Below, piece by piece: positions 18,386 to 62,642 of a stretch of 64,000 nucleotides of DNA. Location of the stretch: the NCBI GenBank assembly GCA_963790105.1, contig CAWBNI010000025.1, positions 76,638 through 140,637 of the forward strand, in the 5' to 3' direction. The stretch's first letter is position 1. Each line of letters starts with the position of its first letter. Made by a program: the position numbers and the translations under genes. The notes under the pieces are model-generated. The model ran no database searches and was not told the origin of the DNA. It saw nothing but the letters and a program-made list of their open reading frames with translations. The DNA comes from an uncultured Bacteroidales bacterium. Lineage in GTDB: Bacteria; Bacteroidota; Bacteroidia; Bacteroidales; UBA10428.

Positions 18386-18557
18386 GATTTACGATTTCTG
18401 GATTTACGATTTACGATTCTTCGCGATTACCGATTACCGACCTCACCCACACGCTGTCGCTGAAGCTTTAGCGTAAGCGTCCGAAGCCTCAGCGAAGGCG
18501 GGATACCGAACACCGAACACCGAATACCGGTTACCGGTTACCGATTATCGATTACCG
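18386..18557. repeat. Long composite array (ATTTACG, CGATTAC, CCGAACA, CGGTTAC words)
   Basis: ATTTACG at 18387, 18402 and 18409. CGATTAC x2 (18424-18437). A quasi-repeat AGCGTAAGCGT/CAGCGAAGGCG. CCGAACA x2, CGGTTAC x2 and CGATTAT CGATTAC (18505-18557). The 3' part encodes the VIDNR* tail of 18538-19738. Confidence 0.9.
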
Positions 18558-19738
18558 TCTGACTGATTACGCCCGTTTTCTTATCCTTGAGAATAACCTT
18601 CACAGAGCCATCCGGCATGGTTTCCTTCTTTACCAGGTAATGGCCGGCATCATAATCACGGGTGGCATGGATGGGTTCTGACTTGTCCTTGCCCCGCCAG
18701 ATATCGAGTTTCACCGGCTCCCATTTTTTTGATTTTGATGACCTGTAACAGGCATCCATGATCTCATTCACTACATACCCGTCATAGAATGTCTCATTTG
18801 GCTGGGTCTTGTTTTCATAGGCCCGGAACATATCGGTAAACATGTCTGTATATCCCAATTCCACGACCTCATCGCCCACGGGAAACAGCCATCCTTTTTC
18901 GGTCTCGGCTTTTTCAGCCACATAACCTCCTTTGCTGGAAGCTGTGAATATTTCAAATCCTGTTCTGAGGAAATTATTCACCCAGATAGTGCCTTCCGTT
19001 CCCATGGCTTCATCCCTCAGATCCATTCCGCCGCGGAAAGACCAGCTGACTTCAAACTGGCCGATGGCCCCATTTTCGTATTTCACCCATCCCAGGGCAT
19101 TGTCTTCGGCTTCAATGGGCTTTACCAGGGTATCAGCCCAGCACATGACCTCAACGGGGCGGATATCTTTACCAATATAATTCCTTGATATTTCAATGCA
19201 ATGACAACCCATATCAAGCAGCACGCCTCCACCGGAGATTTCTTTTGTCCAGAACCAGTCGCTGTGCGGACCGGGATGTGTTTCCCTTGACCTGGCCCAG
19301 ATCACATCACCTATTGCCCCTGACCTTACTGATTTCAGTGCTTTTAGTGTTTTTGGAGTATAAACCAGATCTTCCATGTATCCATGCATCACACCTGCTT
19401 TTTCTGCGAGTTCAAGCATCTCCATTGCTTCTGCAGCATTGCATCCAAGCGGCTTGGTGCAGAAAACTGCTTTCTTTGCTTTTGCAGCCAGCCTCACTGC
19501 CTCCAGGTGCAGGTTATTTGGCAGCGCCACTACTACAATGTCAACTTCAGGATCATTTACTGCCTTTCTCCATTGAAGTGGTCCATTCAGGTATGCCGTG
19601 TTTCTGGGCAAAGGCCTTTCCCCGGCCTTCATCCCGTGAATAAATGACCTGCACTGCATCACGGCTTCGCTGACCATGAATGGAAAAAGTATAAAAATCA
19701 CCGATAAATCCGGCACCGAGCATGGCTACTTTTGGCAT
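18538..19738 (-). pseudogene. Gfo/Idh/MocA-family NAD(P)-dependent oxidoreductase, one frameshift
   Basis: The N-terminal piece 19553-19738 has the Rossmann motif [11 protein letters not shown]. The remainder lies in 18538-19716. Frames 1>0 (one extra nt). Confidence 0.8.
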
Positions 19739-26743: not shown

Positions 26744-27745
26744 ATGATCCTTGTTCAGAATTACACTCTTGCCGTGCTCATGTGCGTCCTTGCCATGATT
26801 TGCTGGGGTTCATGGCAAAACACACAAAATCTTGCAGGCAAATCCTGGCGGTTTGAATTATTTTACTGGGATTTTATCCTTGGGATCCTCCTTTTCTCCC
26901 TTGTTATGGCGTTTACCTTTGGCAGCATGGGTACATCAGGGAGGGACTTCATTTCCGATCTGAAACAGGCTTCTGCCGGAAATCTTCTCAGTGCAGCACT
27001 GGGGGGTGCCATCTGGAATCTGGGAACACTGCTGCTTGTGGCGGCCATTTCCATAGCAGGTATGTCGGTCGCCTTTCCCATCGGAGGTGGTATTGGCTGG
27101 ATACTTGGCATTTTCATCAATTATGCAGGGAGTCCGGAAGGCAACCCCTGGTTTTTGTTTGGCGGATCACTTGTCATTGTATTTGCCATATTGTTCAGCA
27201 TGATTGCATACAGGCGGCTTGCCTATACACAAAAAAAGGCTCCCTTCAAGGGTATTATGTTATCCTTTGCTGCCGGTCTGCTGATTGCCTTCTTTTACCG
27301 CTTTGTCGCTTCTGCAATGGATACCGAATTTGTTCCTGCCACCGCCGGTAAGATCACTTCATACACTGCAGTTGTTGTTTTTTCTATCGGGGCCTTATTA
27401 TGCACAATTCTGTTCAATCCGTATTTTATGATGAAACCTGTGCAGGGATCACCGGTAAAGATGTCGGATTATTTCAAAGGAACAGGGAAAATGCACCTTT
27501 ATGGTATGCTGGGAGGTGCCATCTGGTGCCTTGGCAATTCAGTCAGTTTTATGGCCGTTGGCTCAGCCAGTCCGGCCATATCCTATGGACTTAGTAATTC
27601 CGCTCCTGTTGTTGCAGCTTTATGGGGAATATTGGTGTGGAAGGAATTCAGGGATGCACCCCGGGGCACCAATCGCCTGTTATTGCTGATGTTTGCCTGT
27701 TACCTCATTGGCTTGTCGATGATTGTGTATTCCAGGGTAGGGTGA
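26744..27745 (+). CDS. DMT-superfamily (GRP/GlcU-like) sugar transporter
   Basis: Intact 333 aa with ~10 TM helices and two-fold internal symmetry. Sits in a sugar-catabolism context. Confidence 0.5.
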   Translation: MILVQNYTLAVLMCVLAMICWGSWQNTQNLAGKSWRFELFYWDFILGILLFSLVMAFTFGSMGTSGRDFISDLKQASAGNLLSAALGGAIWNLGTLLLVAAISIAGMSVAFPIGGGIGWILGIFINYAGSPEGNPWFLFGGSLVIVFAILFSMIAYRRLAYTQKKAPFKGIMLSFAAGLLIAFFYRFVASAMDTEFVPATAGKITSYTAVVVFSIGALLCTILFNPYFMMKPVQGSPVKMSDYFKGTGKMHLYGMLGGAIWCLGNSVSFMAVGSASPAISYGLSNSAPVVAALWGILVWKEFRDAPRGTNRLLLLMFACYLIGLSMIVYSRVG

Positions 27746-27795
27746 GGTATTCGGTATTCAGGTAATCGGTAATCGGTAATCGGTATTCAGTAATG
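27746..27795. repeat. GGTATTC / GGTAATC heptamer array
   Basis: GGTATTC x2, GGTAATC x3, GGTATTC, AGTAATG. The array starts 1 nt after the transporter stop codon. GTAATCG is the reverse complement of CGATTAC. Confidence 0.95.
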
Positions 27796-30093: not shown

Positions 30094-30925
30094 ATGAAAA
30101 AGAAAATAACCCTTGTGGGAGCCGGTGGAAAAATGGGACTCCGTTTGACCCGGAATCTTAAGAATTCGGCCTTTGAAATGGCTTATCTTGAAGTGAGCCA
30201 GGCAGGCATCGATAAGCTGAAGGAACTGGGTGTTCTGTTTCTGCCGAGGAAAAGGCACTCGCGGATGCGGATGTGGTTATTCTGGCCGTGCCTGATACCC
30301 ATCTTGGCAAAGTATCCGCGGCAACTCATTCCGAAGATGAAAAAAAATGCCCTGGTGATGACGCTTGATCCTGCTGTTGCAAGGGCAGGAAAGCTTTTTC
30401 TCCGTGAGGATGTAGCTTATTTTATAACTCACCCGGCCCATCCTTCGGTATTTAACTGGGAGCCTACGCCGGAAGCCCAGGCTGACTTTTTCGGCGGATC
30501 GCTGGCTAAACAGCCGATAGTTTGCGCCCTTATGCACGGGGCTGAAGAATATTATGAACCTGGGTGAAGAGATAGCACGGCAAATGTATGCCCCGGTTTC
30601 AAAATCCTTCAGGGTGACCATGGAACAAATGGCACTTCTGGAACCCGCCCTGGTGGAAACCCTTTCATCTTCCTGCCTTGATCTGGTGAGGGAGGGTATG
30701 GAAGAGATCATTAAAAGGGGAGTACCTGCTGAGGCTGCCCGTGAATTTCTTTTCGGACATATTAACATCCAGCTGGCTGTTCTTTTCAAAGAATTGCCGA
30801 ATGCTGTTTTCTCCGATGCTGCCAACAAGGCCCTGCAAAGAGGACGAAGCATCCTGTTCAAGGAAGACTGGAAGAAGATCTTTGAACCTGACAATGTGCT
30901 GCAACAGGTAATGGACATCACTTAG
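30094..30925 (+). pseudogene. NAD(P)-binding dehydrogenase-like protein, frameshifted (includes a hidden compensating pair)
   Basis: Rossmann motif ITLVGAGGKMG. Segment ~30237-30325 reads sensibly only in another frame (VSAEEKALADADVVILAVPDTHLGKVSA). A further shift lies near 30555. Confidence 0.5.
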
Positions 30926-30930
30926 CAGTG

Positions 30931-31043
30931 AATTGATAGTTGATAGTTGATCGTGAGACTGGGAGTGAATGACTGCAAGCCTTGTTCATAACTCCAACTA
31001 CAACTACCAACAACTAACAACTAACAACTAACAACAATCAACT
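30931..31043. repeat. Composite array ending in the (TAACAAC)n leader
   Basis: TTGATAG x2-3 (30933-30953). AACTCCA/ACTACAA/CTACCAA words. TAACAAC x3 (31015-31035), then AATCAACT immediately before the ATG at 31044. Confidence 0.95.
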
Positions 31044-32935: not shown

Positions 32936-35893
32936 CTATAATTCTGCAGTTAGTTTTGTTCCGGCATCATCCGTGGCCTGATCTACGAGGTATATGATGG
33001 ATTTATAGCTTATTCCGCTGTGATGGCTTAATCCTATTTCACAGGTCCGGCTTGTGCTGAATCCCAGGGTGATATCAGGTGTTATCTGTGGTTTTAATTC
33101 CCTGAGGGCTGACGCATTCAGCTCAGGGTATGTGAATCCCCTGTCCCCGGCCCACCCGCAGCAGCCAACATCTTCAGGGACCAGTATTTCTGCGGCACAC
33201 ATTCGGGCAAGTTCCTTCAATTGCTGGTCAAGTCCCATTTTCGTATTGCTGCATGTACTGTGAATCGCTACCTTCAGGGGAAGTTGCCGGAATGTAAGGC
33301 GCGATGGAAAGAATGTAAGCATAAACTCCACCGGTTCATATAATTTCAGACGTTTGTCGAGGGTCTCCTTCATCCTGAATAAACAGGGACTCATATCGCA
33401 AAAAACCGGGATTGTTCCATTTTCTGTAGCCAGAAGCAACGCTTTTTCCAGTTCAGCTGCCTTTTGTTTGCCCTGATTCTTAAAACCCTTGCTGTCAAAT
33501 GCCATCCCGCAGCATAATTCATTAAGATTTTCAGGATATACCACCTCATAACCGGCCTTTACCAAAAGTGCATGTGTTGCCTGGTGCAGGCTGTCTTCTT
33601 TTCCATAGTCGGCTGATTTACCCATCGCCCGGTTTATACACGAAGGGAAATATACAACCTTGTCCCTTTTCATCGAAACGGTTTTTGATACAATCAATCG
33701 GGGTGCTCCGGAGGGCATATAGGGATTCCAAAGCGGGATCATTCTGAAGGAAGCCTGGTGCAAAAACCGTGTAATGTGAGTCATTGTTTTCGTACCCAGG
33801 AATCTGTGTGTGCCAGCCGTAAAATTCAAACCCATCCTGAGAAAAGTGATTGTGCTCCCCATGTGACCTGCAATGAGGCTGGCAATCTTTTCAGCAATTA
33901 TTCCATGATGGGTAAACCGGAGTTCTTTTATCAGAATACCGGTATTAATTTCAACCGGACAGGCTGTTGCACAAAGTCCATCCGTTGCACAGGTGGCGTC
34001 GCCATGATAACGGAAATCCTTTTTAAGCCGGGCAAGTATCCGCTTGTTTCCGTTTTCACCCGAAAGACGTGTCATTTCCCTGAATATCACGATCCGCTGT
34101 CTTGGTGTAATCGTCAGGGATTTTGAAGGGCAACTGACTTCGCAAAATCCGCATTCAATGCAGGGATCGATAATGGGATCAGCAACAGGATATGATTTAA
34201 TGTTTTTAAGATGGATCCCGGGGTCATCATTTAAAATTACACCCGGATTTAGTATATGATCAGGATCAAAAATCTGTTTTATTTCGTGCATGACGGCATA
34301 TAACTCTTCACCCCATTCTTCCCTTACAAAAGGAGCCATATTCCTTCCCGTACCATGCTCACCTTTCAGGCTTCCATCATAACGGTGAATTGTAAGCATG
34401 ACGACTTCATGCATGAATTTATTGTAGTTGTCAATACTTCCCGGTTTGCTAAAATCCGGTGTGATTACAAAATGAATATTGCCATCCAGGATATGTCCCC
34501 AGATAACCGTCCGGTGATACCCGTATTTTTCCGTGAGTTTCCTAAGATCAGTGAGAGCATCAGCGATTACATCCTGCCTGAAAGCAAGATCTTCAATGAT
34601 GCAGGCAGCTCCTGCAGGGCGCGCTGCTGCTGCAGAAGTAAAAAGTCCCTTTCTAACCTTCCACAGTTTCTCGTAACGGTTCCTTTCTGTGGTAAATTCA
34701 ACAGGGAAAAGGGTTTCAACGCTTTCAACGACTTTTGTGATCTGAAGAATCTGCTTTTCAAGAGCCTCCTTTGTATAGGCAGATGTATCGATCAGCAAAG
34801 CCGCACAATCTTCACCCAGTTGTTTTAATTCAACCGGCATTCCGGGCCTTTCCTCTACTGACCGCAATGCATTGCGGTCCATCAGTTCAGATGCAGTGAC
34901 TATGCAGTTTTTAAGAAGCCGGGGAAACTCACAGGCATCTCTCAGGGTAGGAAAGAAAATCAACGAAGTTGCTTTTAACGGAAATTCAGGCACAGTTTTC
35001 AGGGTAACCGAGGAAATGAAACCGAGTGTGCCTTCCGCTCCCACCATGAGGTGTTCAAGAATATCAAATGGATCTGTGAAATCAATCAGTGCATTGATCC
35101 CATAACCGCATGTATTTTTCAATTCAAATTTATGACGGATTTTTTCTGACATCGCGTCATCTGATCTTACCCTTGCAGCGAGATTGGAAAGCTGTTCAAG
35201 GAGGCGGGAATGGGAACCTGCAAATGTTTTTCTGTCAATGGGATCCCGGGTATCTACAACGGCTCCGTCAGCCAGAATAACCCGCATTCCCTGCAAGGTA
35301 TTGTAGCTATTGTGCTGAATTCCAAAGGCTCCTCCGCTGGCATTATTTGAAACTATCCCGCCTATTTTTGCCGAGTTTATGGATGACGGATCAGGACCGA
35401 TCCGGCGGCCGAATCTTGCCAGTCGGGCATTTGCCATTGATCCTGTGATGCCGCATTGGAGAGTAACCTCCGAACCATTCTCTGAATGAAAGCCTGAAAA
35501 ACCATCGCCGATTTCAACCAGTACAGAATCAGAAATGGTTTGTCCGCTTAAGCTGGTTCCTCCGGCTTTAAAAGTTAACGAAATTCCTGATTCCGCGCAG
35601 CTGCGTATAACGTGAATGATTTCGGACTCTGATTCTACACGTACCACCAATTTTGGAACGAGGCGGTAAAAACCTGCATCCGTTCCTTTGGCCAGTGTAT
35701 AGAGCGGGTCAGTGAAAATCCTTGCTCCGGGAATGTTCCTTCTCAGTTTTTTGACCAGGAGTTTTATGGACGGGGAAAGAGGACAACTATTATTTTGTTT
35801 AGAATAATAGCCTAAAGATACAAAAAAAGACCTTCGGGGTTTTTTGAATACCCCGAAGGTCTTCTCGTTTAAAATCGGTAATCGTAGAGCCAA
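32936..35893 (-). CDS. FAD-linked oxidase fused to 4Fe-4S and CCG (cysteine-rich) domains (YdiJ / D-lactate-dehydrogenase-like)
   Basis: Intact. FAD-binding GGTSLSGQ, two CxxCxxCxxxCP-type clusters (CIECGFCEVSCP, CATDGLCATACP) and a C-terminal CCG pair. The true start is probably near 35790 and no ATG is present there. The 5' ~100 nt of the ORF crosses two hairpins. Confidence 0.8.
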   Translation of the reverse strand: MALRLPILNEKTFGVFKKPRRSFFVSLGYYSKQNNSCPLSPSIKLLVKKLRRNIPGARIFTDPLYTLAKGTDAGFYRLVPKLVVRVESESEIIHVIRSCAESGISLTFKAGGTSLSGQTISDSVLVEIGDGFSGFHSENGSEVTLQCGITGSMANARLARFGRRIGPDPSSINSAKIGGIVSNNASGGAFGIQHNSYNTLQGMRVILADGAVVDTRDPIDRKTFAGSHSRLLEQLSNLAARVRSDDAMSEKIRHKFELKNTCGYGINALIDFTDPFDILEHLMVGAEGTLGFISSVTLKTVPEFPLKATSLIFFPTLRDACEFPRLLKNCIVTASELMDRNALRSVEERPGMPVELKQLGEDCAALLIDTSAYTKEALEKQILQITKVVESVETLFPVEFTTERNRYEKLWKVRKGLFTSAAAARPAGAACIIEDLAFRQDVIADALTDLRKLTEKYGYHRTVIWGHILDGNIHFVITPDFSKPGSIDNYNKFMHEVVMLTIHRYDGSLKGEHGTGRNMAPFVREEWGEELYAVMHEIKQIFDPDHILNPGVILNDDPGIHLKNIKSYPVADPIIDPCIECGFCEVSCPSKSLTITPRQRIVIFREMTRLSGENGNKRILARLKKDFRYHGDATCATDGLCATACPVEINTGILIKELRFTHHGIIAEKIASLIAGHMGSTITFLRMGLNFTAGTHRFLGTKTMTHITRFLHQASFRMIPLWNPYMPSGAPRLIVSKTVSMKRDKVVYFPSCINRAMGKSADYGKEDSLHQATHALLVKAGYEVVYPENLNELCCGMAFDSKGFKNQGKQKAAELEKALLLATENGTIPVFCDMSPCLFRMKETLDKRLKLYEPVEFMLTFFPSRLTFRQLPLKVAIHSTCSNTKMGLDQQLKELARMCAAEILVPEDVGCCGWAGDRGFTYPELNASALRELKPQITPDITLGFSTSRTCEIGLSHHSGISYKSIIYLVDQATDDAGTKLTAEL
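35822..35862 (-). terminator. Rho-independent terminator after the YfiR-like gene
   Basis: 13-bp stem AGACCTTCGGGGT/ACCCCGAAGGTCT with a 9-nt loop, followed on the minus strand by T7. Confidence 0.75.
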
Positions 35894-35915
35894 GGCATTG
35901 CCTTGGCTCTACGAT
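35881..35915. other. 35-nt near-perfect palindrome
   Basis: ATCGTAGAGCCAAGGCA-T-TGCCTTGGCTCTACGAT, with 17-bp arms. Confidence 0.9.
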
Positions 35916-35939
35916 ATCCTATTCTATATCAAAATCAAT

Positions 35940-35967
35940 CGTAAATCGTAAATCGTAAATCGTAAAT
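35940..35967. repeat. CGTAAAT x4
   Basis: Four exact units. As at 1517-1544, the array runs directly into a minus-strand TGA stop (35967-35969). Confidence 0.95.
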
Positions 35968-36513
35968 CAATTTACTGCCATTTTTTCGAGCACCGAACTG
36001 GCCATCAGGTTATTTTTCCGGAGAATTTCCTTGTTCATTTCAAATTTCATAACACCGTTTACCGGGATAAAATTAATCATTGATCCTTTATCAATCAGAC
36101 CTTCGGTTTGAGAAACGATGAGCGTATGGCTTCCGCTGGTCTTTTGTACCAATGCATTTATTTTGTTGCTCTGCCAGTCAGCCACAAATACAATTTGCTG
36201 GTATCCTGAAACTTCATTCACCGAACTAAAATACCTTACAACGATAGGCTGCAAACCAACCCTCATGTTTTGAGTAAGCTTTGTCATTTCAGTATAAAGT
36301 TCCTTATCACCAACGATCGTAGATGACAAAGTCACCCGATTTGTTTTCTTCCGGCCAGTTAATGTTTCTCGAAAAATTGTAAAGACAATTTGAAAGATAC
36401 TTCGTCATTGAAACAATTTTCACATCCTGGGATTTACCTGACTCTGTAATTAAAAACAGCAGTATAAATGCAACTGTCAATCTGAGGCCGGTCTTTAAGA
36501 TAGATCTGTTCAT
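35967..36513 (-). pseudogene. YfiR-like (DUF4154) periplasmic protein, one frameshift
   Basis: Signal-peptide piece 36307-36513 plus body 35967-36335 (frames 0>2). The family call is from overall similarity only. Confidence 0.5.
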
Positions 36514-48256: not shown

Positions 48257-48310
48257 CTTCATCGGTCCTCATCTCTTACTCCTTACTCCCTAGTCCCTAG
48301 TCCCTCTTCC
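48254..48310. repeat. TCC(C/T)TA(G/C) heptamer stutter
   Basis: CTCTTAC TCCTTAC TCCCTAG TCCCTAG TCCCTCT (48273-48307) with degenerate units before. It contains the stop and the last codons (RKRD*) of cydB. Confidence 0.9.
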
Positions 48311-49297
48311 TAAATTTAAACACCTTAAACAAGTACGCAAACGCCGGAAAGATTAAAACGATCCCTACAATCAGTGCATACTAAGCAAATAATACATTGT
48401 TTTTTCAGGTGCCCTTGTATTCCATACAGTCAGATGTCTGTCCGCCTGAAATATAAACCATTACCGGGAACTGCACCGCAAACCAGCCAGTGAGTATGCA
48501 GGCAGTTTGAATACCCGCCAGGATCCGTGTCCACACTGCATTCTTCCTTTTGATCTGGATCCACATAATTGGAATAAGCAGGGTAGCCATGATCATACAA
48601 CCCATACTTACATATGAATGAAGGAACTTCTGCAGAAAATGCAGCTCGTAATAATGCGCTGCAATAAAAACGATCAAACCGCTCAGCGATCAGGAATGAG
48701 AATAAAATAATGGCAGTCCGTGCAAACAGGGGATATGTTTCATCTGTAGCCTCACCAATCAGGTAAACCGAGGCGATCCAGCCAAACAAAAGGGTTAAAA
48801 ACAGACCTGTGGCAATTGAAAATCCATTCAGCCAGGGTGCCATGAATACCTGAATAAAATGTACCTTCCGCACTATCCGGTATCTTTCCCAGCATGACAG
48901 CACCCAGAACAATTCCCAGAAAAAACGGGGTGAGCAGGCTTGAAAAGCGGAACAGAAAGGAATAATATTGATTTCCTGTTTCATGCGGAACATCATAATA
49001 CCTGAATGTAAAGGCTGAGCCACGGATAATTATCCCGATGAGTATGATCAGCAGGGGAATATGGAGGTAGGTGGTGAGCCGTGTATAAACAAGTGGAAAG
49101 CCGTTAAACAGAATGACAACGGCCAGGATAATCCAGATGTGATTTGCCTCCCACACAGGGGCTATAGCCTGGGAGATTGTTTTAATTCCTTTTTTTCCGG
49201 TAATCCATTCCACTATTCCGGCCCCAAAATCGGCACCTCCCAGCAGCACATACAACAGGATGGCAATTCCCAATATGCCAATTATGATCTCAGTCAT
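48297..49297 (-). pseudogene. cydB: Cytochrome bd ubiquinol oxidase subunit II, about 4 frame changes
   Basis: Pieces ending at 49297, 49023 and 48677. Then ..LTVWNTRAPEKTMYYLLS and ALIVGIVLIFPAFAYLFKVFKFRKRD* in other frames. Confidence 0.8.
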
Positions 49298-50614
49298 GGC
49301 TGTATGCTTTTTGAGGTATCCTTTTGCAGGGCTGCTATCTGCCTTTTCATCAGCAGAAAAACAACCATCGTGAGGGTAAGATAAATAAAAGTGACAAGGT
49401 AAAATGAATACCGGATACCGGGCATAGGAGTAACCGATTCACTTGTTCTTAGAATGCCATAAATGATCCACGGTTGACGTCCTGTTTCAGTGACAATCCA
49501 TCCGGCTTCCACTGCAATAAATCCCGCAGGTGTGAGCCAGGCCAGTGTGGTGAGCCACCATCGCTTTTGCAGGGTTTCTTTCCATTTAAATGTAAAGAGC
49601 AGGTTCATTAACGCAGCAAGGGCCATGATCACTTCCCATGAAGACCATGAGCTGAAATGCGATATGCACTATTGGAACAGGCGGCCAGTCGGTTTTTTTG
49701 AATTTGTCCAGGCCGGTAACCTCCGCATTAAAATCCCCATGTGCCAGAAAACTCAATAACCCGGGAATGTGAATGGCATATTTTACCTCTTCTTTTGATG
49801 TGTCGGGAATTCCACCGATTACCATGCGGGCCGGTGCAGAGGTTTTAAAAAGAGATTCCATGGCTGCCAGTTTTGCAGGTTGAAGGCGGGCTACATTTTT
49901 TGCTGAAATATCACCGCTTATGGGCTGCAATAATGCAGCCACGGTGGCAAAGGCCAGGGATATCCTCACGGCTTTTTGATGAACCGGGTTGTCCTTATCC
50001 TTAAGCAGCAACCAGGAGTGAATTCCGGCCACTGCAAAACAGGTTGAGGCAAAGGATGCAATTGTCATGTGCAGGGCCTGTTGAAACCACGCCTTGTTGA
50101 ACATAGCCTTAACCGGATCTATATTGATCGCCTGCCCGTTTACCCAGTCAAATCCGGCCGGAGAATTCATCCAGGCATTGGCTGACACAACAAAGATTCC
50201 CGATATTACACCGGCTATTCCAACAACCAGTCCCGACATGAGGTGCACATACCTGTTCACCCGGTTCCATCCATACAGGAATACCCCGAGTGCTATGGCT
50301 TCGAGAAAGAAAGCAGTTCCTTCCCATGAAAAGGGCATGCCAATAATTGATCCGGCATGCTCCATAAATTTGGGCCACAGCAAGCCCAGTTCAAAAGATA
50401 AAACCGTGCCTGAAACAGCACCTACAGCGAAGAAAATTGCAACCCCCCGGGACCAGGCCTTGGCAAGATCGAGATAATACGATTTTCCTGTCCTTATCCA
50501 TTTATATTCCGCAACAAACATCAGCCATGGCATGGCCATACCAATGCAGGCAAATACAATGTGAAAAATAAATGAAACCGACATCTGATAGCGTGCCGCA
50601 AGTAAATTATCCAT
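49294..50614 (-). pseudogene. cydA: Cytochrome bd ubiquinol oxidase subunit I, one frameshift
   Basis: N-terminus MDNLLAARYQMSVSFIFHIVFACIGMAMPW.. (49586-50614) plus the C-terminal piece 49294-49632. Frames 1>0. Confidence 0.85.
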
Positions 50615-52511
50615 TTCGTATCCGGTTTACAAGAGAGAAAAATTTTTGTCCATGTACAAGGATCTTTAATCCCTGTCTTTTGAGTGATATGTTGGCATTG
50701 GTTTTTACATGTTCACCCGACCGGTGTGAATAGGCTGATAAAATATCCTTATAGGATAATATCCCGATTACCTTATCAGGTTCTTTATCCGACACCACCG
50801 GCAGAACTTCAAGATCCTCCCTGGCCATGATTTCAACTGCCGTTCTCAGGTTGCTTTCATTGCTTATTACAACCTGGTGTTTTTTTATGAGCGAATCAAT
50901 TAACTCTTCACCCCGGTTAAAAAGGCTGTATATATCGATCAGACTGACAATCCCTTTGAATTCTCCCTCGTTTGTCACCACAATAAAATAATTTGAATTG
51001 ATTTGCAGGTTGCTTTTAAGCCATTCCCTTATTTCGCCGATTGTATTTTCAGAACTCAGGGCAATTTCATTTGGTTTTATAACCTGCCTTAACGTTAATT
51101 TTTCCAGTACATCGGGTTCATACGAATGCGGGGTTTTAATGCCCCTTCGGGCTATTTTTTCGGTCATGATAGTAGTTTCCATCAGTAAAAAGGAAACAAA
51201 GTAAGAGGTAATGCAGGCTGCCAGAAGTGGAAGCAGGGCATTGATCTGCAAGGTGGTTTCAAGGGCGAAAATTATGGAAGTCATTAGGGCCCTGGATGCA
51301 CCAGCGAACATGGCTGACATTCCAACCAAAGCGCAGACAGGAATTGAAACACCCGAATAGGGGAAAAGATATAAGGATCAATTTACCGGCCAATGCACCG
51401 GTGGCTCCTCCGATGGTCAGCAGGGGAGCCAGTGTTCCACCGGATGTTCCGCTTCCCAGGGCAATAGCCCATGAGATAAATTTCAAAATAGCCAAGGTGA
51501 ACAGGATGTTTAGCGTCACATGCCCTGTAAGAATATCTTTAATATTTTCATAACCCACACCCAGGGTGCGGGGTGCATAATATCCGATAATACCTACTGC
51601 GAGTCCGCCGATGGCCGGCCACCACATCCAGTGAACAGGAAGCTTGCCGAATCCGTCTTCAATGACAAAAACAATGCGTGTGACCAGGGCCGACATTACG
51701 CCAATGAATAAACCAATTACCGCATACCCGGCAAGTGCCGGTAATACCATTATGTATTATCAACATTGTTCATTCCGAATACAGGCTCAGGTCCGAACAG
51801 GATAACATGGGCAGCAGCACCGGTAATGCAGGCCAGGGACACAGGAATAATGGAAACATGCGAAAATTCAAACAGCAGCAATTCAATGGCAAGAAATATG
51901 GCAGCGATGGGACTTCCGAAAATTGCCGACATACCTGCCGCGGCTCCGGCAGCCAAAAGTATCTTCCGTTCATGGGAGGATATTTTAAACAACTGCCCGA
52001 TAGTGGATCCGAGGGCTCCGCCTGTAGCAATGATGGGGCCTTCTGCGCCAAAGGGTCCGCCGGTTCCGATAGAAATTGCAGATGAAAGTGGTTTTAAAAA
52101 CGTAATGGAAGGTTTTATCCGGCTCTGGTTGACCAGAATCTGCTCCATGGCTTCGGGTATCCCATGGCCCCGGATAGCTTTCGAACCATACATGGCCATT
52201 AATCCAACTATAATCCCCCCCGCCACAGGTACCAGGATCACAAAAATTCCCAAGGAATTACCGGCCGGTCCAACGTGTATTGTCGAAAAAGTACCATGAA
52301 ATGCAATGTTTGTAAATAAATCAATCAGGTAAATGAGCAGTTTGGCAATTATGCTTACCAGGAGAGCAATGAGCAAGGCCAGGAGCGATATAGTGATCAA
52401 CCTTGATTTATTGGCACTAACATTCTGCTGAATGTGTTCTGCTTCGAGCGTAGGTTTAAGTGAAATTGATATAGGAATTCCGTTTGTATAAACGTGTGGG
52501 TTTTTCATCAT
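50607..52511 (-). pseudogene. ClC-family chloride channel/antiporter with a C-terminal CBS pair, 2 frame changes
   Basis: Motifs GHGIPEAME, GTGGPFGAEGP and GSPIAAIFLAIE. CBS domains lie in 50607-51329. Confidence 0.8.
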
Positions 52512-52584
52512 GGCACCTGATAATTGATTAACCAGGGTAATAAAAAAACAAGTGAACGGAACTTTTGTTGATCCCCGAACTCTT

Positions 52585-54022
52585 CTATATGATCGCCGAA
52601 AAGCGGTTGATGATCTCTGACAGGAATGATGGGATTATCCCCAGGAGAAGAATACCGATCACCACAATGGCAAGGACCAGATTTCCGGTGAGAGGATAAA
52701 CGAACATGTTCCCGGGATTCGGATTCTGTAAACATGATTTTTATTATTCTCAGGTAGTAATAAATGCTGATCACACTATTGATTATCAGGCTCATTACAA
52801 GCAGCCATAAGCCGGAGCGAATACCCGCAAGTACCAGGTAAAACTTGGCTATAAATCCGGCAGTTAATGGAATTCCGGCCAATGAAAGAAGGGTCAGGGA
52901 CAACACAATGGCAATCCAGGGATTTTTCCAGAAAAGGCCTTTCAGGTCTTCAGTATTTTCAGCCTCACTTTCACAAACCGATAACAGGGAAATGATCCCA
53001 AAGGCTCCTACCGTTGTGATCATGTAGGAGATCATATAAAACACGGCGGCCTGGGTTCCCAGTTCTGTCCCCGTCAGCAACGTAATCATCAGGTATCCGA
53101 GGTGGGCGATGGATGAATAGGCAAGCAGCCGCTTAAAGTTGGTCTGGTTTAAGGCCAGCAGGTTTCCTGCAAACATCGAAATCACGGATATAACAGAAAT
53201 GATCACTATCAATGTTTCAGATTGAGAGCCCCGGATGGCATAAAAGAAGCGGATGGAGATGGCCAGTACGGATCCCTTTGAAATAGTGGCAATAAACGTT
53301 GTTACAGGTGCAGGAGCTCCCTGGTAAACGTCTGGTATCCACATGTGAAAGGGCACCAGGGCCAGTTTAAATCCTATGCCCACAAGCATCATCCCTATGC
53401 CGATGGTTATGAGGGGAGAAATATGTGGCCCGGAAAAAAAAGGAGTTAAATTGCTAAAGCTCATGGTACCTGTGGCTGCATATACCAGGGCCATTCCAAA
53501 CAGCAAGGAAAGCAGTGGACAAGGGATGCAATAACAAGAAATTTCACCCCTGCTTCCACACTGTAATCCCTCTGCTTTACATAAGCAATGAGAACATACA
53601 GCGAAATACTCAGCGTTTCAAGTCCGATGAAGAAGGTTACGAAATGGCTTGCCGTAACCAGCACACTGGCACCCAGGGTGGCCACGAAAAGACAGGATAA
53701 AATATTCCTCACGTTGTCCGCCATGCTGGGTAAGATAAACATAGGAGATGACCGTGATTAGCAAACATACACACAATAAAGCTCCCAAAAATACAAGGCT
53801 GAAATTATCAATCACCAGCAAGGGTTCAATCCGGTGGGGAATATCCGGCACTATAAAAAAGATGGAAAGAAATGCTGCAGCAAACATGATGAGCGAAAAG
53901 CCGTAAATGACCTTCAGGTTTCGGGATACTGTGATGGTGAGCATCATGATAACCGGAGCACTTGCTAAAATCAGCAAGGGAAGCAGGCACAGAAAATCAA
54001 GTTTAGTCATACTACCGTGCAT
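52585..54022 (-). pseudogene. nuoN: NADH:quinone oxidoreductase subunit N, about 3 frame changes
   Basis: Pieces ending at 54022, 53742 and 53506. The native tail PLTGNLVLAIVVIGILLLGIIPSFLSEIINRFSAII* ends at TAG 52585-52587. Confidence 0.75.
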
Positions 54023-54099
54023 TGTTTTTCAGCTTTGTTGTTTCAGAAGGACTAAAATGTTCATCACTTAATACATATTCTCCCTGCCGGGTCTTTTTT

Positions 54100-55576
54100 T
54101 CAAATGCCGGGCCGGTTGCCGTTGAGTGTTTTCAATATGGCCGGTCTGGCAGTATTGATAACCTGATTGAGGAAAAAAGCCCAGGTAGAATATTACAATC
54201 ACCATGACTCCCAGTGTAAATGATTCCCTCATGCGAAAGATCCTTCAGTGGCTTATCTGAATTTCGTTTTCCATAAAACACCCGCTGCATGATCCGGATC
54301 GAATACAGGGTTGCAAAAACCAATCCGATGCTGGCAAGACAGGCAAACAGAACATTAACTTTAAAGACTCCTGTTAGTGTGAGGAATTCTGCAATAAAAT
54401 TGCCTAGACCCGGCAATCCGAGTGAGGCCATGACAAACACCAGTCCGATGGCACCCATGGCGGGCACCTGTTCCCATAAACCTCCCATCTTACGGAGGTC
54501 ACGTGTATGCATGCGTTCATACAGCTGGCCTGAAATAATAAACAGGGCACCTGTACTGATGCCATGCGCGATCATCTGCATCACCACGCCCTGGTATGCC
54601 ATCTCATTAAAGGCAAAGACTCCCAGTACAATAAAACCCATATGATTTACGCTGGTATATGCCACCAGCCTTTTAAGATCCGTCTGCGCAAAGGCCAGTA
54701 TGGCTCCGTATAAAATGCCGGCCACGCCCAGGATCATGCCTGCCGGCGCAAAGACCTCGGATGCATGCGGGAATAACGGAATAACAAATCGCAATAAGCC
54801 ATAGGCGCCGGTTTTCAGCATCAGCGAAGCCAGGATGAGACTTCCTGCTGTAGGAGCTTCTGTATGTGCATCGGGTAGCCAGCTATGGAACGGTACCACG
54901 GGTAATTTAACAAGAAATGCCGCCAGGAAACCACCCATGATCAGCATTTCAGCCCTGGGGGTCATGGATGTACCGATCAGTTCCTGGTAATCAAAGGTAT
55001 AAAGACCCGTGTTGTGTCCATGAATAAGGTATAGGGCAATGATGGCAATAAACATCAGCAATCCGCTGGCCTGGGTAAATATGAAAAACTTATAGGAAGC
55101 ATATATCCTGTTTTCATGTCCCCAGATGCCAATCAGAAAATACATGGGGATCAGCATTACTTCCCAGAAGAAATAAAACAGAAACAGGTCCATCGAAAGA
55201 AATACGCCGGTAATTCCAGCGAGTATCCACAGGATGTTAAAATGAAAGAAGCCGGTTCTGTATAGATATTTCACGCCAGGAAATCAGAACTGCGAGTATT
55301 CCGATGAAGTAGGTAAGAATCAGCAGGAGAAGGCTTAATCCATCCAGAGCCAGGTGAAGCTGAATGCCAAACAAGGGTATCCAGGTTCTTGTAAATTCGG
55401 TTATCCACATACTTTGCGGGTCATAACCCCGGCCATAAACGGACAGTACCAGGAGTAAATCAACCGTGACCGAAAGGAGGGAAACATAGCGTGAAATCAC
55501 CGGATTGTTTTTTCCGGCTAACCAGGCTATCACGCCCCCGGCCATCAAAATAAGGATAAGGTATTACGAGTATCAT
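54100..55576 (-). pseudogene. nuoM: NADH:quinone oxidoreductase subunit M, 4 frameshifts
   Basis: The ATG at 55576 overlaps the nuoL stop (ATGA). Frames 1>0>2>1>0, each step one extra nt. Ends at TGA 54100-54102. Confidence 0.8.
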
Positions 55577-57454
55577 ATCGTAAGCATAATAGTGAGTAAA
55601 ATCACCAGTCCAGCCGTCAATACAAGGGCATACAACCTGAGTTTGCCGTTTTGCGACCTGCTGAGCAAACCGTTAAAGAACATGACGGACTGCGCTATAT
55701 AGGTAAAGATCTTATCGAGCACATCGTTTTTGTTAATAGCGGATATCCATTCAACAGGCCTTACGATCAACCGGTCATACAGCCAGTCGAATCCCCATCC
55801 CCTATAAAAAAAGTCATTCAGTCCGTGCTGATTGAACAGGGCAGGGAAGGACTTCTTTTTATAATAATAGACATATGCCAGCCAGACACCGCCCAGCGCT
55901 ATAATCGCAGAAATAACCTGGAACAGCCATTCCGGTAAGTGCCTCGCCGGTCAGATGTGACTTCCGGAAACAGGGGGTTCAACAAGGTTGAAAAAAGATG
56001 TACTGGTCCCAGGTTTTCAGGCAATTCTATAAAACCGCCGGCCAGCGAAAGAAAGGCAAGAACTAGCCAGCGGAATTCCCATCAGAATGCCGGGTTTATG
56101 TTTGGGTTCAATTTTAAGCTCTCCGAAAAAGGTAAGAAATATCATCCGGAAAGTATACAGCGAGGTAATCAGGGCACCCGCAATACCGGCAAGCCATAGC
56201 CATTTGCTTCCCATGCCGGACGACCACGAAAACCAGAGGATCTGGTCCTTGCTGTAAAAGCCTGCCGTGATGAGAGGCAGTGCAGACAGTGATGCACCGC
56301 CAATGAGGAAGGTGATGAAAACCAGGGGCAGTTTTTTTCGCAAACCTCCCATTTTGTGCATATCGTGTTCCTCATGCAGCAACAATATCACACTTCCGGC
56401 GCCAAGAAAGAGCAGAGCCTTAAAGAACGCATGGATCATGAAATGGAAAATGGCAGCTGACCAGGCGCCCACTCCCAGGGCAAGGAACATATAACCGATC
56501 TGGCTTATCGTGGAATAGGCAAGTACACGTTTCAGATCGTGCTGGTTCAAAGCACTGAAGCCGGCAATAAACAGGGTTGCTGCGCCGATGATGGCTACCA
56601 GGGTCTGAACTGCAGGTGCCAGGCTGAACAGAACATGGGTGCGGGCAATCAGGTATACTCCGGCTGTTACCATGGTTGCTGCATGGATGAGTGCACTGAC
56701 CGGCGAGGGACCGGCCATGGCATCAGGCAGCCAGGTCTGCAGGGGCAGCTGGGCGGATTTTCCCACCGCTCCTCCCAGCAGCAGCAAGGCAGAGATCACC
56801 GCAAGCGGCGAGCCGGAATGCCATTGAACAGGCGCCTGCTGCATGAGGGTATCAATATCCAGGGTTCCAAAACTTACAAAAACAGGAATAATCCGATGAT
56901 CATGAAGGTATCACCGATACGGGTAACGATAAATGCTTTGCGGGCAGCATTGTTGTTTTCAGGATCCTTATACCAGAAGCCGATCAGCAGGTAACTGCAT
57001 AATCCGACTCCTTCCCATCCAAGGTAAAGAAGCAAGCAGATTTCCGGCCAGCACCAGGACAAGCATGGAGGCAACAAACAGGTTCATATAGGCGAAAAAC
57101 CGCGAAAAGCCCTCATCGTCCTGCATGAATTCAACCGAATACAGATGGATCAGGGCACCCACAAAGGTGATGACAAAACAAAATACAAGGGAAAGGGCAT
57201 CCAGTTTAAGGGTTATGCCGGCAGTAAATCCACCTGCATTCATCCAGGTATACAGGGTGGATGTAACTGCTGTTCCCCCGGGATGTGAAGAGAGAAAATT
57301 AATCCCCGATAACCATGGTAAGCATGGCAGACAGGCAGACAGAGCCAACGGCAATGACGGCAACAGCCCGGCGTGACAGTATCCTGCCAAAGAAAACGAT
57401 AATCAGAAAACTGAGAACAGGCAAACCGGGTATTAGTCCAATATAGGCATCCAT
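55573..57454 (-). pseudogene. nuoL: NADH:quinone oxidoreductase subunit L, about 6 frame changes
   Basis: Start MDAYIGLIPGLPVLSFLII at 57454. Pieces ending at 57390, 57077, 56844 and 55770, with further shifts in 55770-56017. Confidence 0.75.
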
Positions 57455-57480
57455 CTGCAATTGTTTATATTACTTTTTTA

Positions 57481-57786
57481 TCATGCAACTTTCTGAATCG
57501 AATCCGCATCAAGGGTTTTGAAATGATGATACATCTGAAGGATAAGGGAAAGCCCGACAGAAACCTCGGCCGCCGAAACCGTCAGAATAAAAATAAACAT
57601 TACCTGTCCGTCGGTCTGCATCCAGTGCGATCCGGCAATCACAAAAGCAAGTCCGGCACTGTTCAGCATGATTTCAATGGATAACAGCATATAAATCACA
57701 TTCCGGCGCACCAGGAAACCGACCAGTCCGATCAGGAAGATCATCCCGGCAAACATCAATTGAATTTCCATTGACAGGGTTACCAT
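57481..57786 (-). CDS. nuoK: NADH:quinone oxidoreductase subunit K
   Basis: Intact 101 aa with three TM helices, in the correct position between nuoJ and nuoL. Confidence 0.85.
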   Translation of the reverse strand: MVTLSMEIQLMFAGMIFLIGLVGFLVRRNVIYMLLSIEIMLNSAGLAFVIAGSHWMQTDGQVMFIFILTVSAAEVSVGLSLILQMYHHFKTLDADSIQKVA

Positions 57787-57789
57787 ATC

Positions 57790-58348
57790 TTAAGCCTGTT
57801 TGTTTAGTTAACGTCTTTTCTTCCCCGGGTTGTTTTACCAGGAACCGGTGGATGACTTTCTTTTTCTGTTTACCCAGGTGATAGGCCCCGACTATACCGG
57901 CCATCAGAACACTGCAGCTATTTCAACAGCAATAAGATAGGTTGTGAAAAGGGAAACGCCAACCTGTTTGGGTGTAATTACAACCGCTGACTGTATTCAC
58001 CGAATGCAATTGCCTCATGGCATACACCAGAATGGCCAGCAGTGCACAGTGACAGGAATAACAGGCAAAATCCACATCCGGGGTTTCAGCCATTTGTTTT
58101 CGATTTCTTCTTCCAGGCCAATGTTGAGGATCATCACAACAAATATGAACAATACCATGATGGCACCGGCATAGACAATCACTTCAAGGGCTGCAATAAA
58201 AGGTGCACCCGAAATATAAAATATGATTGAAATGGAAAGAAGCGACAGGATCAGGTACAGCAGGGCATGAATAGCATTGCGGTTGGTGATCGACATCAGC
58301 GATGAGATCAGGGCGATGGATGGCTGCAATAATAAAAATCGTATTCAT
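57790..58348 (-). pseudogene. nuoJ: NADH:quinone oxidoreductase subunit J, 2-3 frame changes (3' end approximate)
   Basis: ATG at 58348 (MNTIFIIAAI) shifts into ALISSLMSITNRNAIHALLYL..VYAGAIMVLFIFVVMIL. The tail is in 57674-57904. Confidence 0.65.
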
Positions 58349-58369
58349 GTATTCACTGAATATTATTTT

Positions 58370-58885
58370 CTAATGAATCAGACTTTTCAAATCAACCGGG
58401 GGTTCTTCATTTTCACCCGTTCCGGTATCTTTCACTCCCATATCTACTCCTGCCACACGGTAAAAATTATATCCCGGATATTTTCCCTGTCCGCTGATCA
58501 GCAGGTGCTCTTTTTCATAGACCAGGTTCTGACGGTCATATTCTGCCATTTCAAAATCGGGGATCAGCTGGATGGCATAGGTAGGGCATGCCTCTTCACA
58601 AAGGCCGCAATAAATACATCGCGAAAAATTGATCCTGAAAAACTCCGGATACCGCCTTCCGTCCGTATCCTCGGTCGACTGCAAGGCGATGCAGTCCACC
58701 GGGCAGGCAGCTGCACATAGATTACAGGCAACACATCTTTCTTTCCCGTCAGGGTCGCGGGTCAGCACAATCCTTCCCCTGTAACGCGGCGGCAAATAGG
58801 GTTTCTTTTCAGGATATCCCCTGGTTTCGCGTTTATGAAATGCATGCAGGAATGTGATCCATATGCTTCTTAATATACTTATCAT
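58370..58885 (-). CDS. nuoI: NADH:quinone oxidoreductase subunit I (2x[4Fe-4S])
   Basis: Intact 171 aa. [12 protein letters not shown] and [12 protein letters not shown]. Confidence 0.9.
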
Positions 58886-62640: not shown

Positions 62641-62642
62641 AA

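Follow-up and report, generated by a model that had tools for sequence, protein, structure and literature searches.

Phase-variable contingency SSRs lie in the 5' coding regions or promoters of host-adapted pathogens, where slippage acts as an on/off switch for a gene. The REP/BIME elements of E. coli, reportedly treated by Liang, Rudd and Deutscher in 2015, are extragenic palindromes near stop codons, and the STRR of heterocystous cyanobacteria, which are said to go back to Mazel et al. in 1990, are heptamers. Closer to the repeats discussed here are the TAACTGA direct repeats of marine Beggiatoaceae, some Cyanobacteria and Bacteroidetes (MacGregor 2015, PMC4679880). In the forward direction these provide stops in three frames and are therefore found at ORF ends, and further heptamer repeats were reported in the same work from Bacteroidetes spacers. 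Rehm et al. (2015, PMC4692102) described G-rich heptamer SSRs with the units GGGAATC in Xanthomonas and GGGGA[C/T]T in Nostoc PCC 7120. Long SSRs with units of 5-11 nt are also attributed to prokaryotes by Mrazek, Guo and Shah (2007), as summarized in PMC4679880.

We have analyzed a window of 64,000 nucleotides (the whole stretch presented here) from the genome of an uncultured Bacteroidales bacterium, together with the rest of that genome and those of its relatives. The tandem arrays of 7-8-nt units that it carries lie directly against many stop codons. For the most part they start with the native stop and do not touch the protein; they are not a tail-rewriting switch. The initial annotation had noticed that two unrelated minus-strand genes end identically in TGA-(TTTACGA)4, and this is borne out at 35937-35969 and 1514-1546. 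The exact 33-nt sequence TGATTTACGATTTACGATTTACGATTTACGATT has these two matches in the window, both on the minus strand, and none in 100 shuffles, and at both sites the TGA is the stop of the ORF. The first array, (TTTACGA)x4.6 at 35937-35968 (minus strand), shares its first two bases, GA, with the last two of the TGA stop at 35967-35969; the second, also of 4.6 units, at 1514-1545 (minus strand), joins the TGA stop at 1544-1546 in an identical phase. The unit contains a single G, with G equal to C, and the array at 35937-35968 shows no structure as RNA (MFE 0). Both genes keep their native C-termini and native stop positions, the array coming only after the stop.

The gene upstream of the first array is the 3' part of a DUF4154/YfiR-like gene (35967-36335, minus strand; Pfam PF13689, 1e-18), whose N-terminal part sits in a different frame. 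Its C-terminus, SSVLEKMAVN, is native, since orthologs show EKMA(V/T)N before their stop and, array-bearing or not, align through residue 121-122 of 122. In the relative G020 an identical (TTTACGA)4 stands at the orthologous stop, and a degenerate copy is present in G001. The copy number is thus equal in the source genome (G000) and in G020 at a protein identity of 87%, so the array looks constrained rather than freely slipping. About 25 nt 3' of this array there is a strong 16-bp hairpin (35881-35915, minus strand; fold z = -6.1), with a core, CAAGGCAWTGCCTTG, that belongs to a dispersed family. As it lacks a T-run it is not a canonical terminator, and no canonical intrinsic terminator was found directly 3' of the array other than this T-less hairpin. 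The second array is followed in the same spacer by further minus-strand arrays at 1436-1514, (ATCTAGGC)x5.6 and (GCACGACT)x3.5, and by a hairpin of the ATCCC..GGGAT family at about 1404. The gene that it adjoins (1544-2062, minus strand) encodes 172 amino acids with a weak HEAT_2 match and a native C-terminus, RKVIESIE. Orthologs keep this C-terminus while the array on the stop differs between species, with the units ATTATGA in G020 and G048, AGGCTGN in G046, AGGGACG in G002 and TGATGAG in G044; in remoter orthologs the array is absent. Judged from these sequences, the change from TTTACGA to TTTATGA or ATTATGA at the same site and copy number looks like mutation in situ followed by homogenization. 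A search of the window for Rfam families gave no matches.

The other junctions of arrays with ORF ends listed in the initial annotation are all present in the sequence, and its proposal that arrays supply C-terminal tails stands for some of them. A GGGACGA-type array at 9660-9686 (minus strand) is read into the end of an HTH_34 regulator ORF (9660-9920, ending IRDEGRGRQ), of which it encodes about DEGRGRQ and the TAG stop. The tails of the orthologs are all different (tinneq, nkgq, lkr and others). For a Gfo/Idh/MocA oxidoreductase gene (18538-19716), a CGGTAAT/CGGTGTT-type array (18504-18557, minus strand) overlaps the final 5 or so codons (TVIDNR and stop). Beyond a shared (S/T)Q its orthologs carry 2-6 variable residues, many of them with different arrays right behind their stops, and in G020 the stop lies within the loop of one ATCCCGTAGGGAT hairpin. 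At the end of cydB (KFRKRD) there are GGGACTA and GGAGTAA arrays (48275-48305, minus strand), the first unit giving the final 1-2 codons and the TAG stop at 48297-48299, which lies within GGGACTA units; cydB of G048 ends in KFRDK, with its TGA within an AGGGACA/AGTGACA array. The nuoG C-terminal ORF (59929-60249) is overlapped at its end by a CGGTAAT/GTGATCG-type array (59894-59947, minus strand). It finishes in WGVIGDR at 59929-59947, where only DR lies past the conserved WG(V/K)IG, and the same unit family is found in G020 at higher copy number. Both nuoG and cydB are frameshift-broken in the source assembly; in G048 they are intact, nuoG with an open frame of 908 aa and cydB with a protein of 331 aa. 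The lineage-specific tails encoded in this way are short: 7 aa in the HTH regulator, about 5 in the oxidoreductase, 3-4 in cydB and 2 in nuoG.

At the two TTTACGA genes, alignment with orthologs shows the C-termini to be native and not supplied by the arrays, and the same holds for a third gene. A GTGAAAA(A) array (9978-10012, minus strand) overlaps the stop and final codons of the ORF 10000-10653 (GTSEK and stop, 10000-10012). Its SEK ending is native, as array-free orthologs finish in DEK (G048) and REK (G020), and to judge from the letters the array appears to have been seeded by the end of the gene itself. On the plus strand, a GGTAATC/GGTATTC array (27746-27794) stands directly behind the TGA (27743-27745) of a permease gene (26744-27745). 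The array does adjoin the stop, as initially described: it starts on the next base, with a gap of 0 nt. In the G020 ortholog of the permease it is reduced to a degenerate remnant.

Arrays of this kind are abundant in the whole genome. There are hundreds of exact runs with 13 or more matches at periods 7 and 8 and 0-4 at periods 5, 6, 9, 10 and 11, and TRF returned 952 rows of period 7, 670 of period 8, 130 of period 6 and 286 of period 10. With gene calls from a crude ORF model on a frameshift-bearing assembly, 73 of the 974 clusters of 7-8-nt arrays lie within called genes and the others in spacers or across gene ends. Cluster density is 1.67/kb in convergent spacers, 0.66-0.72/kb in co-directional and 0.40/kb in divergent ones (Fisher p = 6e-26), in agreement with 1.46 (convergent) versus 0.22 (divergent) clusters/kb in 400 kb sampled from G048, a high-quality relative. 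Among 542 co-directional clusters, 147 are at most 3 nt from a stop (null 68.7 +/- 7.0), compared with 32 within the same distance of a start. The distribution has a sharp peak at offset -2, that is, with the array beginning at the second base of the stop codon (45 loci, neighbor mean 11.8, Poisson p = 1.5e-13). Thus the suspicion that arrays crowd at gene 3' ends is confirmed by distances from the stop that are far from uniform. Two classes of units separate cleanly: overlaps of -20 to -3 involve 109 stop-containing and 16 stop-free units, and offset -2 involves 8 stop-containing and 38 stop-free ones. We also considered, and set aside, degenerate units that continue within coding sequence ahead of the fused stop, their similarity being no higher than that of permuted pairs (p = 0.17). 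The vocabulary is limited, one word recurring at about 40-90 loci. Because the same words recur at many loci, purely local birth of an array at each stop was rejected as a general rule; it fits the GTGAAAA array at 9978-10012.

Comparison between species shows that arrays persist at orthologous 3' ends while their unit changes. Between G000 and G020, orthologous 3' ends have arrays in both genomes in 13 cases, in one of them in 15 and 4, and in neither in 142, and at the 13 shared sites the unit differs in 10. The corresponding figures for G000 and G048 are 6, 8, 8 and 85 (Fisher p = 0.003). Wherever an offset -2 locus has a close ortholog that can be aligned (at least 86% identity), the two proteins match up through the last residue. 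In a 96%-identical pair, TAA-TT-GGGACAA.. is replaced by TGA-CGAGGGA.., with an apparent loss of 6 nt and the stop position unchanged. In one case the G048 ortholog continues for 11 aa within an array, whereas its G000 counterpart stops ahead of it. Exact protein look-up for two proteins found no strain-level variants on record, and an exact 28-nt gene-end pattern had no match in metagenome contigs; the differences observed are all between species.

The reading that we prefer, to which we assign a probability of a little under 60%, is that this lineage carries downstream of its genes mosaics of 7-8-nt arrays that grow by slippage, with an edge limited by selection and a protein that is largely insulated. 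The mosaics are ordered, draw on a shared vocabulary and are often followed by small dispersed hairpins, all in fixed orientation to transcription and just downstream of genes. Replication slippage would lengthen or shorten the arrays, the unit sequence would turn over fast, and the arrays would be tolerated, or perhaps used, chiefly downstream of genes. Their proximal edge would be pressed toward the ORF, with loss of spacer, until purifying selection on the protein halts the advance. Two outcomes are expected, and both are seen in the data. In the case of units that are stop-free on the sense strand (TTTACGA, GGGACGA, CAGTTCTG and others), the first two bases coincide with bases 2-3 of the native stop. 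The stop is then T plus the beginning of the unit, and offset -2 is the closest approach of an array that does not open the frame. Stop-containing units (AATTATG, CGGTAAT, GTGAAAA) offer every reading frame a stop by the third unit at the latest, and the ORF may enter them by 1-6 codons and acquire a short lineage-specific tail. C-terminal rewriting would be an occasional by-product over evolutionary time, with copy-number change largely sparing the protein. A neutral ratchet alone leaves several features unaccounted for: the vocabulary shared across about 100 loci per word, the fixed module order counted from the stop and the strong strand polarity. The same applies to the excess of TAG at fused and nearby stops and to a secondary mode, a weak one, near 4 copies.

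Several of these features would suit functional transcribed 3'-UTR cis-elements that need a position right behind the stop and a fixed orientation, an explanation that could coexist with slippage and that we regard as possible, at clearly lower odds. Candidate roles are the binding of RNA-binding proteins, a C-poor "anti-rut" filler that keeps Rho from loading, and G-rich non-template tracts that favor pausing or R-loops. Strand polarity points in this direction, as the sense strand has G>C in 186 of 204 stop-proximal arrays (91%) and 90% of the start-proximal arrays have C>G. So does the module order, which is fixed relative to the stop: GGGACNA stands ahead of GAGAGRT in 17:0 cases, of TGCAG in 21:0 and of the hairpin in 38:0. 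Also consistent with it are the retention of arrays at orthologous 3' ends even where the unit has turned over, the conservation of (TTTACGA)4 between species, the position of arrays with the stop on one side and a hairpin or terminator on the other, and the secondary mode at about 4 units in the copy-number distribution (compare Rehm 2015 for G4-forming repeats). However, unrelated words swap at the same stop, which is hard to square with sequence-specific recognition, an array is missing from many orthologs, and the TTTACGA array has neither structure nor an excess of G over C.

A bolder version seems unlikely to us, namely that the arrays, rather than being passive microsatellites, come from a dedicated, transcription-oriented process or element that sets cassettes of 7-8-nt words, in order, in the register of the stop, and that these form a Bacteroidales-specific 3'-UTR code deciding the fate of ribosome or mRNA once translation has terminated. 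The first unit would here begin with the two final bases of the stop, often making TAG. We hold it to be slightly less likely still that a targeted "writer" inserts mosaic cassettes, mobile or templated, which join at the stop codon or bring one along in a defined orientation, possibly by a REP/RAYT-like or other single-strand mechanism. TAG accounts for 17% of stops genome-wide, 33-42% of nearby unfused stops and 60% of fused ones, and a head of the form "TAG-GGAC" recurs often, TAGGGAC[AG]AGGGAC having 57 matches in the genome. These figures argue for such a writer, together with the shared vocabulary and the module order that starts at the stop. Two dispersed hairpin families accompany the arrays, CAAGGCAWTGCCTTG (38 genomic copies) and ATCCC..GGGAT (about 148), and the hairpin with the oxidoreductase stop in its loop in G020 would also fit. 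Against insertion, the junction changes between close relatives resemble small local indels, at least one array (GTGAAAA, 9978-10012) was apparently seeded from the gene's own end, and the unit changes at constant site and copy number resemble mutation in situ and homogenization.

The initial annotation had gone further and suggested that gene ends are where arrays become inserted or enlarged, and that copy-number change, by altering tail length and frame, rewrites C-termini. On this view the arrays would be contingency loci whose slippage yields protein variants, which we consider improbable. About 108 ORFs do have 1-15 array-encoded terminal codons, the tails of the HTH_34 regulator, the oxidoreductase and cydB vary between species, and the 11-aa read-through in G048 is of the expected kind. 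The effect of gaining or losing one unit was simulated at 211 stop-adjacent loci. At overlaps of at least 21 nt, 48% of the events alter the protein, yet the share is 15% for all single-unit events, and copy-number change fails as a general cause of new C-termini. A single-unit change can never alter the protein at 105 of the 211 loci, the median length change is at most 1 aa, and at the two TTTACGA loci, which lie behind native stops, 0% of the events have an effect. An ORF enters a perfect array in a fixed phase and stops within at most three units, so that gain or loss of a unit leaves the tail unchanged. Moreover, stop-free arrays sit exactly at the stop (38 of 46 at offset -2), the opposite of what a tail-varying device would require, and the genes concerned are housekeeping ones (nuoG, cydB, the oxidoreductase) rather than surface or contingency genes. 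Finally, an artifact of a noisy long-read MAG, which might be suspected because G000 is only 83% complete and has many frameshifted genes, is effectively refuted by the same arrays and stop docking in many independent assemblies, including short-read MAGs and G048 (4 contigs, 99% complete).

About 5% of the gene ends in this lineage adjoin fast-evolving repeat arrays, with proteins that are largely shielded in one of two ways: by a stop codon at the first unit, or by a unit with stops in all three frames. For annotation, the 1-6 terminal residues that arrays encode in about 100 ORFs should not be taken as conserved features. We think that the split between stop-free words at offset -2 and stop-containing words that are read into provides a testable rule for selection on microsatellites at coding boundaries. 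Strand polarity, the fixed word order and the TAG excess go beyond the present explanation.

In comparison with known systems, the arrays share with the SSRs in the accessible text of Rehm et al. the tandem heptamers, the mostly intergenic location, the scarcity between divergent ORFs and the preference for about 4 units. Their position at most 50 bp from a stop or overlapping it, the G-rich coding strand and the depletion between divergent ORFs are as described there. They differ in that one word is replaced by dozens of 7- and 8-nt words, in fixed-order chains with hairpins, and in the Bacteroidales host. The G-quadruplex definition given in that text (G-tracts of at least 3, at least 4 units) does not apply to TTTACGA, although a subset of the words fits G3N4, with 43 occurrences of (GGGACNA)3GGG; for the many words without a G-tract, TTTACGA included, no G-quadruplex is possible. 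The same portion of the article gives no account of a phase-locked stop made of T plus unit, or of the split between stop-containing and stop-free units.

With the TAACTGA system the arrays have in common gene-oriented intergenic direct repeats of heptamers, some of which overlap the stop of the upstream ORF; TAACTGA repeats mostly end 1 nt upstream of starts, whereas here the dominant site is the stop codon. A Beggiatoaceae-type TAACTGA system was considered for this genome and discarded, as TAACTGATAACTGA occurs 0 times on either strand, that is, there are no TAACTGA doublets. The head-to-tail units, far above what composition predicts and predominantly intergenic, place the arrays among the long SSRs with 5-11-nt units. 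From the summary of that work they share the dominance of heptamers, the lineage-specific scatter over phyla, the proposed origin by slippage and the exclusion from coding regions of units that are not a multiple of three; abundance is what the surveys, as summarized there, report, and not stop docking, module order or strand polarity.

The cyanobacterial STRR reportedly involve other words in another host lineage, and a cyanobacterial origin, considered at first, was rejected: the genome here contains only 24 GCGATCGC (HIP1) sites, and its relatives are MAGs of Bacteroidales. Contingency loci are likewise made of tandem units near coding sequence that are not multiples of three. Unlike them, the arrays here are at or after the stop, beside housekeeping genes and mostly buffered in copy number, and a change of copies does not generally alter the protein in the simulation described above. 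REP/BIME elements are said to be similar in being dispersed, transcribed and extragenic at 3' ends, a subset of them a few nucleotides from the stop; REPs are palindromic hairpins, whereas the arrays are non-palindromic tandem units that two dispersed hairpin families accompany. The type of repeat has thus already been published (Rehm 2015; MacGregor 2015), and what is found here is the local version of a known bacterial repeat habit.

Tandem arrays with units of 7 or 8 nt are abundant in the source genome of the window (G000; 5.48 Mb, 50 contigs, 83% complete). Over the whole genome TRF gave 952 period-7 and 670 period-8 rows, with far lower numbers for other periods, and exact runs with at least 13 matches amount to hundreds for periods 7 and 8 and to 0–4 for periods 5, 6, 9, 10, and 11. 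The vocabulary of units is limited, words such as AACTGCAG, ACGAGGG, AAATCGT, AATTATG, and AATCGGT being found at 92, 69, 65, 59, and 47 loci, respectively. A dozen perfect TTTACGA arrays have lengths of 30–33 nt. Of the 35 genomes of the genus, only 6 (G000, G020, G046, G019, G001, and G003) contain the string TGA-(TTTACGA)3, with 2–7 copies per genome; thus, single words are confined to subclades.

The initial annotation reported that two unrelated genes of the window end identically in TGA-(TTTACGA)4 and that other arrays are read into ORF ends. The window contains the 33-nt string TGA-(TTTACGA)4-TT exactly two times, on the minus strand at 1514–1546 and 35937–35969, whereas shuffles never contain it, and at both sites its TGA is the stop codon of a minus-strand ORF. 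One of them, at 35967–36335, is a DUF4154/YfiR-like gene (PF13689, 1e-18), and the other, at 1544–2062, codes for a protein of 172 aa whose only match, to HEAT_2, is weak. The remaining junctions were all found in the sequence as described, and at 27746 the first array base is the first base past the stop. The observation of arrays at stops is, therefore, confirmed.

The positional claim also holds, since array-to-stop distances are not uniform. Based on gene calls from a simple codon-usage ORF model, 974 groups of arrays (clusters) are distributed very unevenly, with 1.67 per kb in convergent, 0.66–0.72 per kb in co-directional, and 0.40 per kb in divergent spacers; a cluster is held by 42% of the convergent spacers versus 15% of the divergent ones (Fisher p = 6e-26). 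The same bias was repeated in a 400-kb sample of the relative G048 (1.46/kb versus 0.22/kb). Of the 542 clusters in co-directional spacers, 147 overlap the stop codon or lie within 3 nt of it, compared with 68.7 ± 7.0 expected within 3 nt when clusters are placed at random in those spacers, and only 32 lie within 3 nt of a start codon. The histogram of offsets has one sharp peak, at −2: in 45 loci, compared with a mean of 11.8 at neighbouring offsets, the array sets in at base 2 of the stop codon (p = 1.5e-13).

What happens at the junction depends on the unit. Arrays were oriented with the upstream gene and classed by the presence of a sense-strand stop triplet in the periodic unit, which divides the junctions cleanly into two classes. 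When the ORF enters the array by 3–20 nt, stop-containing units outnumber stop-free ones by 109 to 16; at offset −2, the figures are 8 and 38. With a stop-containing heptamer, three units suffice to place a stop in every frame, so that an entering ORF ends after 1–6 extra codons, as in VIDNR*, GVIGDR*, and GTSEK*. With stop-free words (TTTACGA, GGGACGA, CAGTTCTG, and GAGAGAT), the array starts exactly at the stop, giving junctions such as TAG|GGACGAG.., TGA|TTTACGA.., and TAG|TTCTGCAG.., in which the T stands for the base predicted by the period. The coding sequence upstream of this T is no more unit-like than permuted pairs (p = 0.17), and the boundary is thus sharp.

These arrangements speak against the proposal that copy-number change rewrites C-termini as a general rule. 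All single-unit deletions and duplications were simulated for 211 arrays touching or abutting an ORF end. No event changed the protein at 105 of the loci, the two TGA-(TTTACGA)4 loci and the one at 27746 included; over all loci, an average of 15% of events changed it. For overlaps of 3–20 nt, the largest length change per locus had a median of 1 aa, and the only sensitive group was that of the 17 loci with overlaps of at least 21 nt, at which 48% of events alter the protein. In principle, an ORF that enters a perfect array does so in one set phase and frame and ends within three units (within the first one at offset −2), so gaining or losing a unit, which leaves these first units as they are, spares the protein. 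Thus, in the prevailing arrangement proteins are protected from the dynamics of the arrays, which is the opposite of a contingency switch. For real length variants, look-ups of two proteins by identical sequence, and of a 28-nt gene-end pattern in metagenome contigs, returned no matches.

Lineage-specific tails supplied by arrays, also proposed initially, stood in four of seven cases, in which they are short, and failed in three, including both TGA-(TTTACGA)4 genes, whose ends are native. Each case of the window was compared with orthologs within the genus, from genomes that are uncultured Bacteroidales MAGs; the closest available one, G020, is syntenic with the window at ~85–98% protein identity, and G048 is 99% complete in 4 contigs. 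The YfiR-like C-terminus, ..SSVLEKMA(V/T)N*, is conserved, with an identical TGA-(TTTACGA)4 in G020, a decayed copy in G001, and no array in G018 and G010. That of the HEAT-like protein (..RKVIESIE*) is conserved too, the word on its stop varying by lineage (ATTATGA, AGGCTGN, AGGGACG, or TGATGAG) and farther orthologs having no array. The third native end is GTSEK* of ORF 10000–10653, for which G048 (..DEK*) and G020 (..REK*) have no array; here the array appears to be a duplicate of the terminal sequence of the gene itself. The HTH_34 regulator at 9660–9920 does obtain its DEGRGRQ* from GGGACGA units, with a different tail in each ortholog, and VIDNR* of the Gfo/Idh/MocA protein (18538–19716) is array-encoded and variable. 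In the G020 ortholog of the latter (locus L160, contig C13), the stop codon lies in the loop of a dispersed-family ATCCCGTAGGGAT hairpin, and this element, not an array, supplies both the TAG and the terminal residues ..IIP*.

The two other array-derived tails belong to genes that are among the many broken by frameshifts in the assembly (cydA, cydB, a CLC channel, nuoG, nuoH, nuoL, nuoM, and nuoN), hence each of the "nuoG" and "cydB" ends is that of the final piece of a disrupted gene model; the terminal frames nevertheless match those of intact orthologs. The counterparts are whole in G048 (nuoG, a 908-aa open frame; cydB, 331 aa), which points to assembly indel errors rather than real pseudogenes. 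Core respiratory genes at 48400–62700 appear as several ORFs in alternating frames (e.g., 48405–49297, 49294–50614, 50607–52511, and 59929–62658), and the median ORF is 238 aa in the G000 assembly versus 290 aa in G048. The cydB fragment ends at 48297 with ..KFRKRD* (..KFRDK* in G048), both ends lying within GGGAC-type units, and in nuoG (59929–60249) only the last two residues, ..DR* past the conserved WG(V/K)IG, derive from the array.

Between relatives, arrays recur at the 3' ends of orthologs, mostly with different units. Among 174 ortholog pairs of G000 and G020, an array is present in both for 13, only in G000 for 15, only in G020 for 4, and in neither for 142, and 10 of the 13 shared sites have different units; the corresponding counts against G048 are 6, 8, 8, and 85 (Fisher p = 0.003). 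Spacers lacking arrays show good conservation between these two genomes. By contrast, the gene at 30554–30925, with 98% protein identity between G000 and G020, has entirely different arrays downstream; at 30926–31043, TTGATAG.. of G000 is replaced by AATGTGCT.. and GTTATGCA.. in the G020 counterpart. At all offset −2 loci for which a close ortholog (at least 86% identity) could be aligned, the alignment of the two proteins extends through the last residue, so the array is docked on a native stop position. One 96%-identical pair has TAA-TT-GGGACAA.. versus TGA-CGAGGGA.. at the same position, a difference to be expected from a loss of 6 nt that spares the stop's T. At 1544–2062, four TTTACGA units in G000 correspond to TTTATGA plus three ATTATGA in G020, with equal copy number and 1–2 point changes per unit, which looks like unit turnover in situ.

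We think that the best explanation, with a probability of somewhat under 60%, is that the arrays are 3'-flank microsatellites, which would be driven by slippage with fast turnover of units and whose proximal edge would be set by selection on the protein. The initial interpretation is partly supported: arrays concentrate on 3' ends and at times give a few terminal residues, but the two TGA-(TTTACGA)4 genes are untouched and copy-number change is mostly incapable of rewriting C-termini.

Several features go beyond this neutral account and keep two rivals alive, namely a transcript-level function, with the arrays having a role in 3'-UTRs, and a cassette-like origin. The first is strand polarity: on the sense strand, G exceeds C in 186 of 204 stop-proximal arrays, and C exceeds G in 94 of 104 start-proximal ones. 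Along co-directional spacers of the whole genome, composition flips from G>C near stops to C>G near starts. Words also follow a fixed order outward from the stop, GTGACNA/GGGACNA, then GGGAGTA/GAGAGRT, then TGCAGNNN, and then an ATCCC..GGGAT hairpin, with genome-wide precedence counts of 17:0, 21:0, and 38:0; examples in the window are 9541–9690 and 1380–1546. TAG, the rarest stop (17% genome-wide, genes of at least 200 aa), rises to 60% at fused stops, which the array overlaps, and to 33–42% where an array follows within 60 nt. Among period-7 arrays, copy number has a secondary mode at 4.0–4.5 instead of declining monotonically. Finally, both TTTACGA arrays of the window are followed downstream by members of dispersed hairpin families; the copy at 35881–35915 has the core CAAGGCAWTGCCTTG, found 38 times genome-wide. 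Similar hairpins also come after arrays in other places, including in G048 on the 3' side of nuoG.

Repeats of the same kind have been described in other lineages. Heptamer repeats rich in G, with four units preferred, are known from Xanthomonas and Nostoc (Rehm et al., 2015, PMC4692102). Those with the word TAACTGA, which in some cases are from Bacteroidetes, were reported by MacGregor (2015, PMC4679880), according to whom forward repeats hold stops in all three frames and hence lie at ORF ends. The present arrays extend such repeats to a new lineage and differ in having many words instead of one, most of which, TTTACGA included, are incapable of forming a G-quadruplex, unlike the G-rich repeats; TAACTGA repeats are absent from this genome. 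Compared with what we have drawn from both reports, three points appear to be new, namely the division of units by whether they contain a stop, the phase-locked "T + unit" stop, and the quantitative demonstration that this arrangement buffers proteins against slippage.
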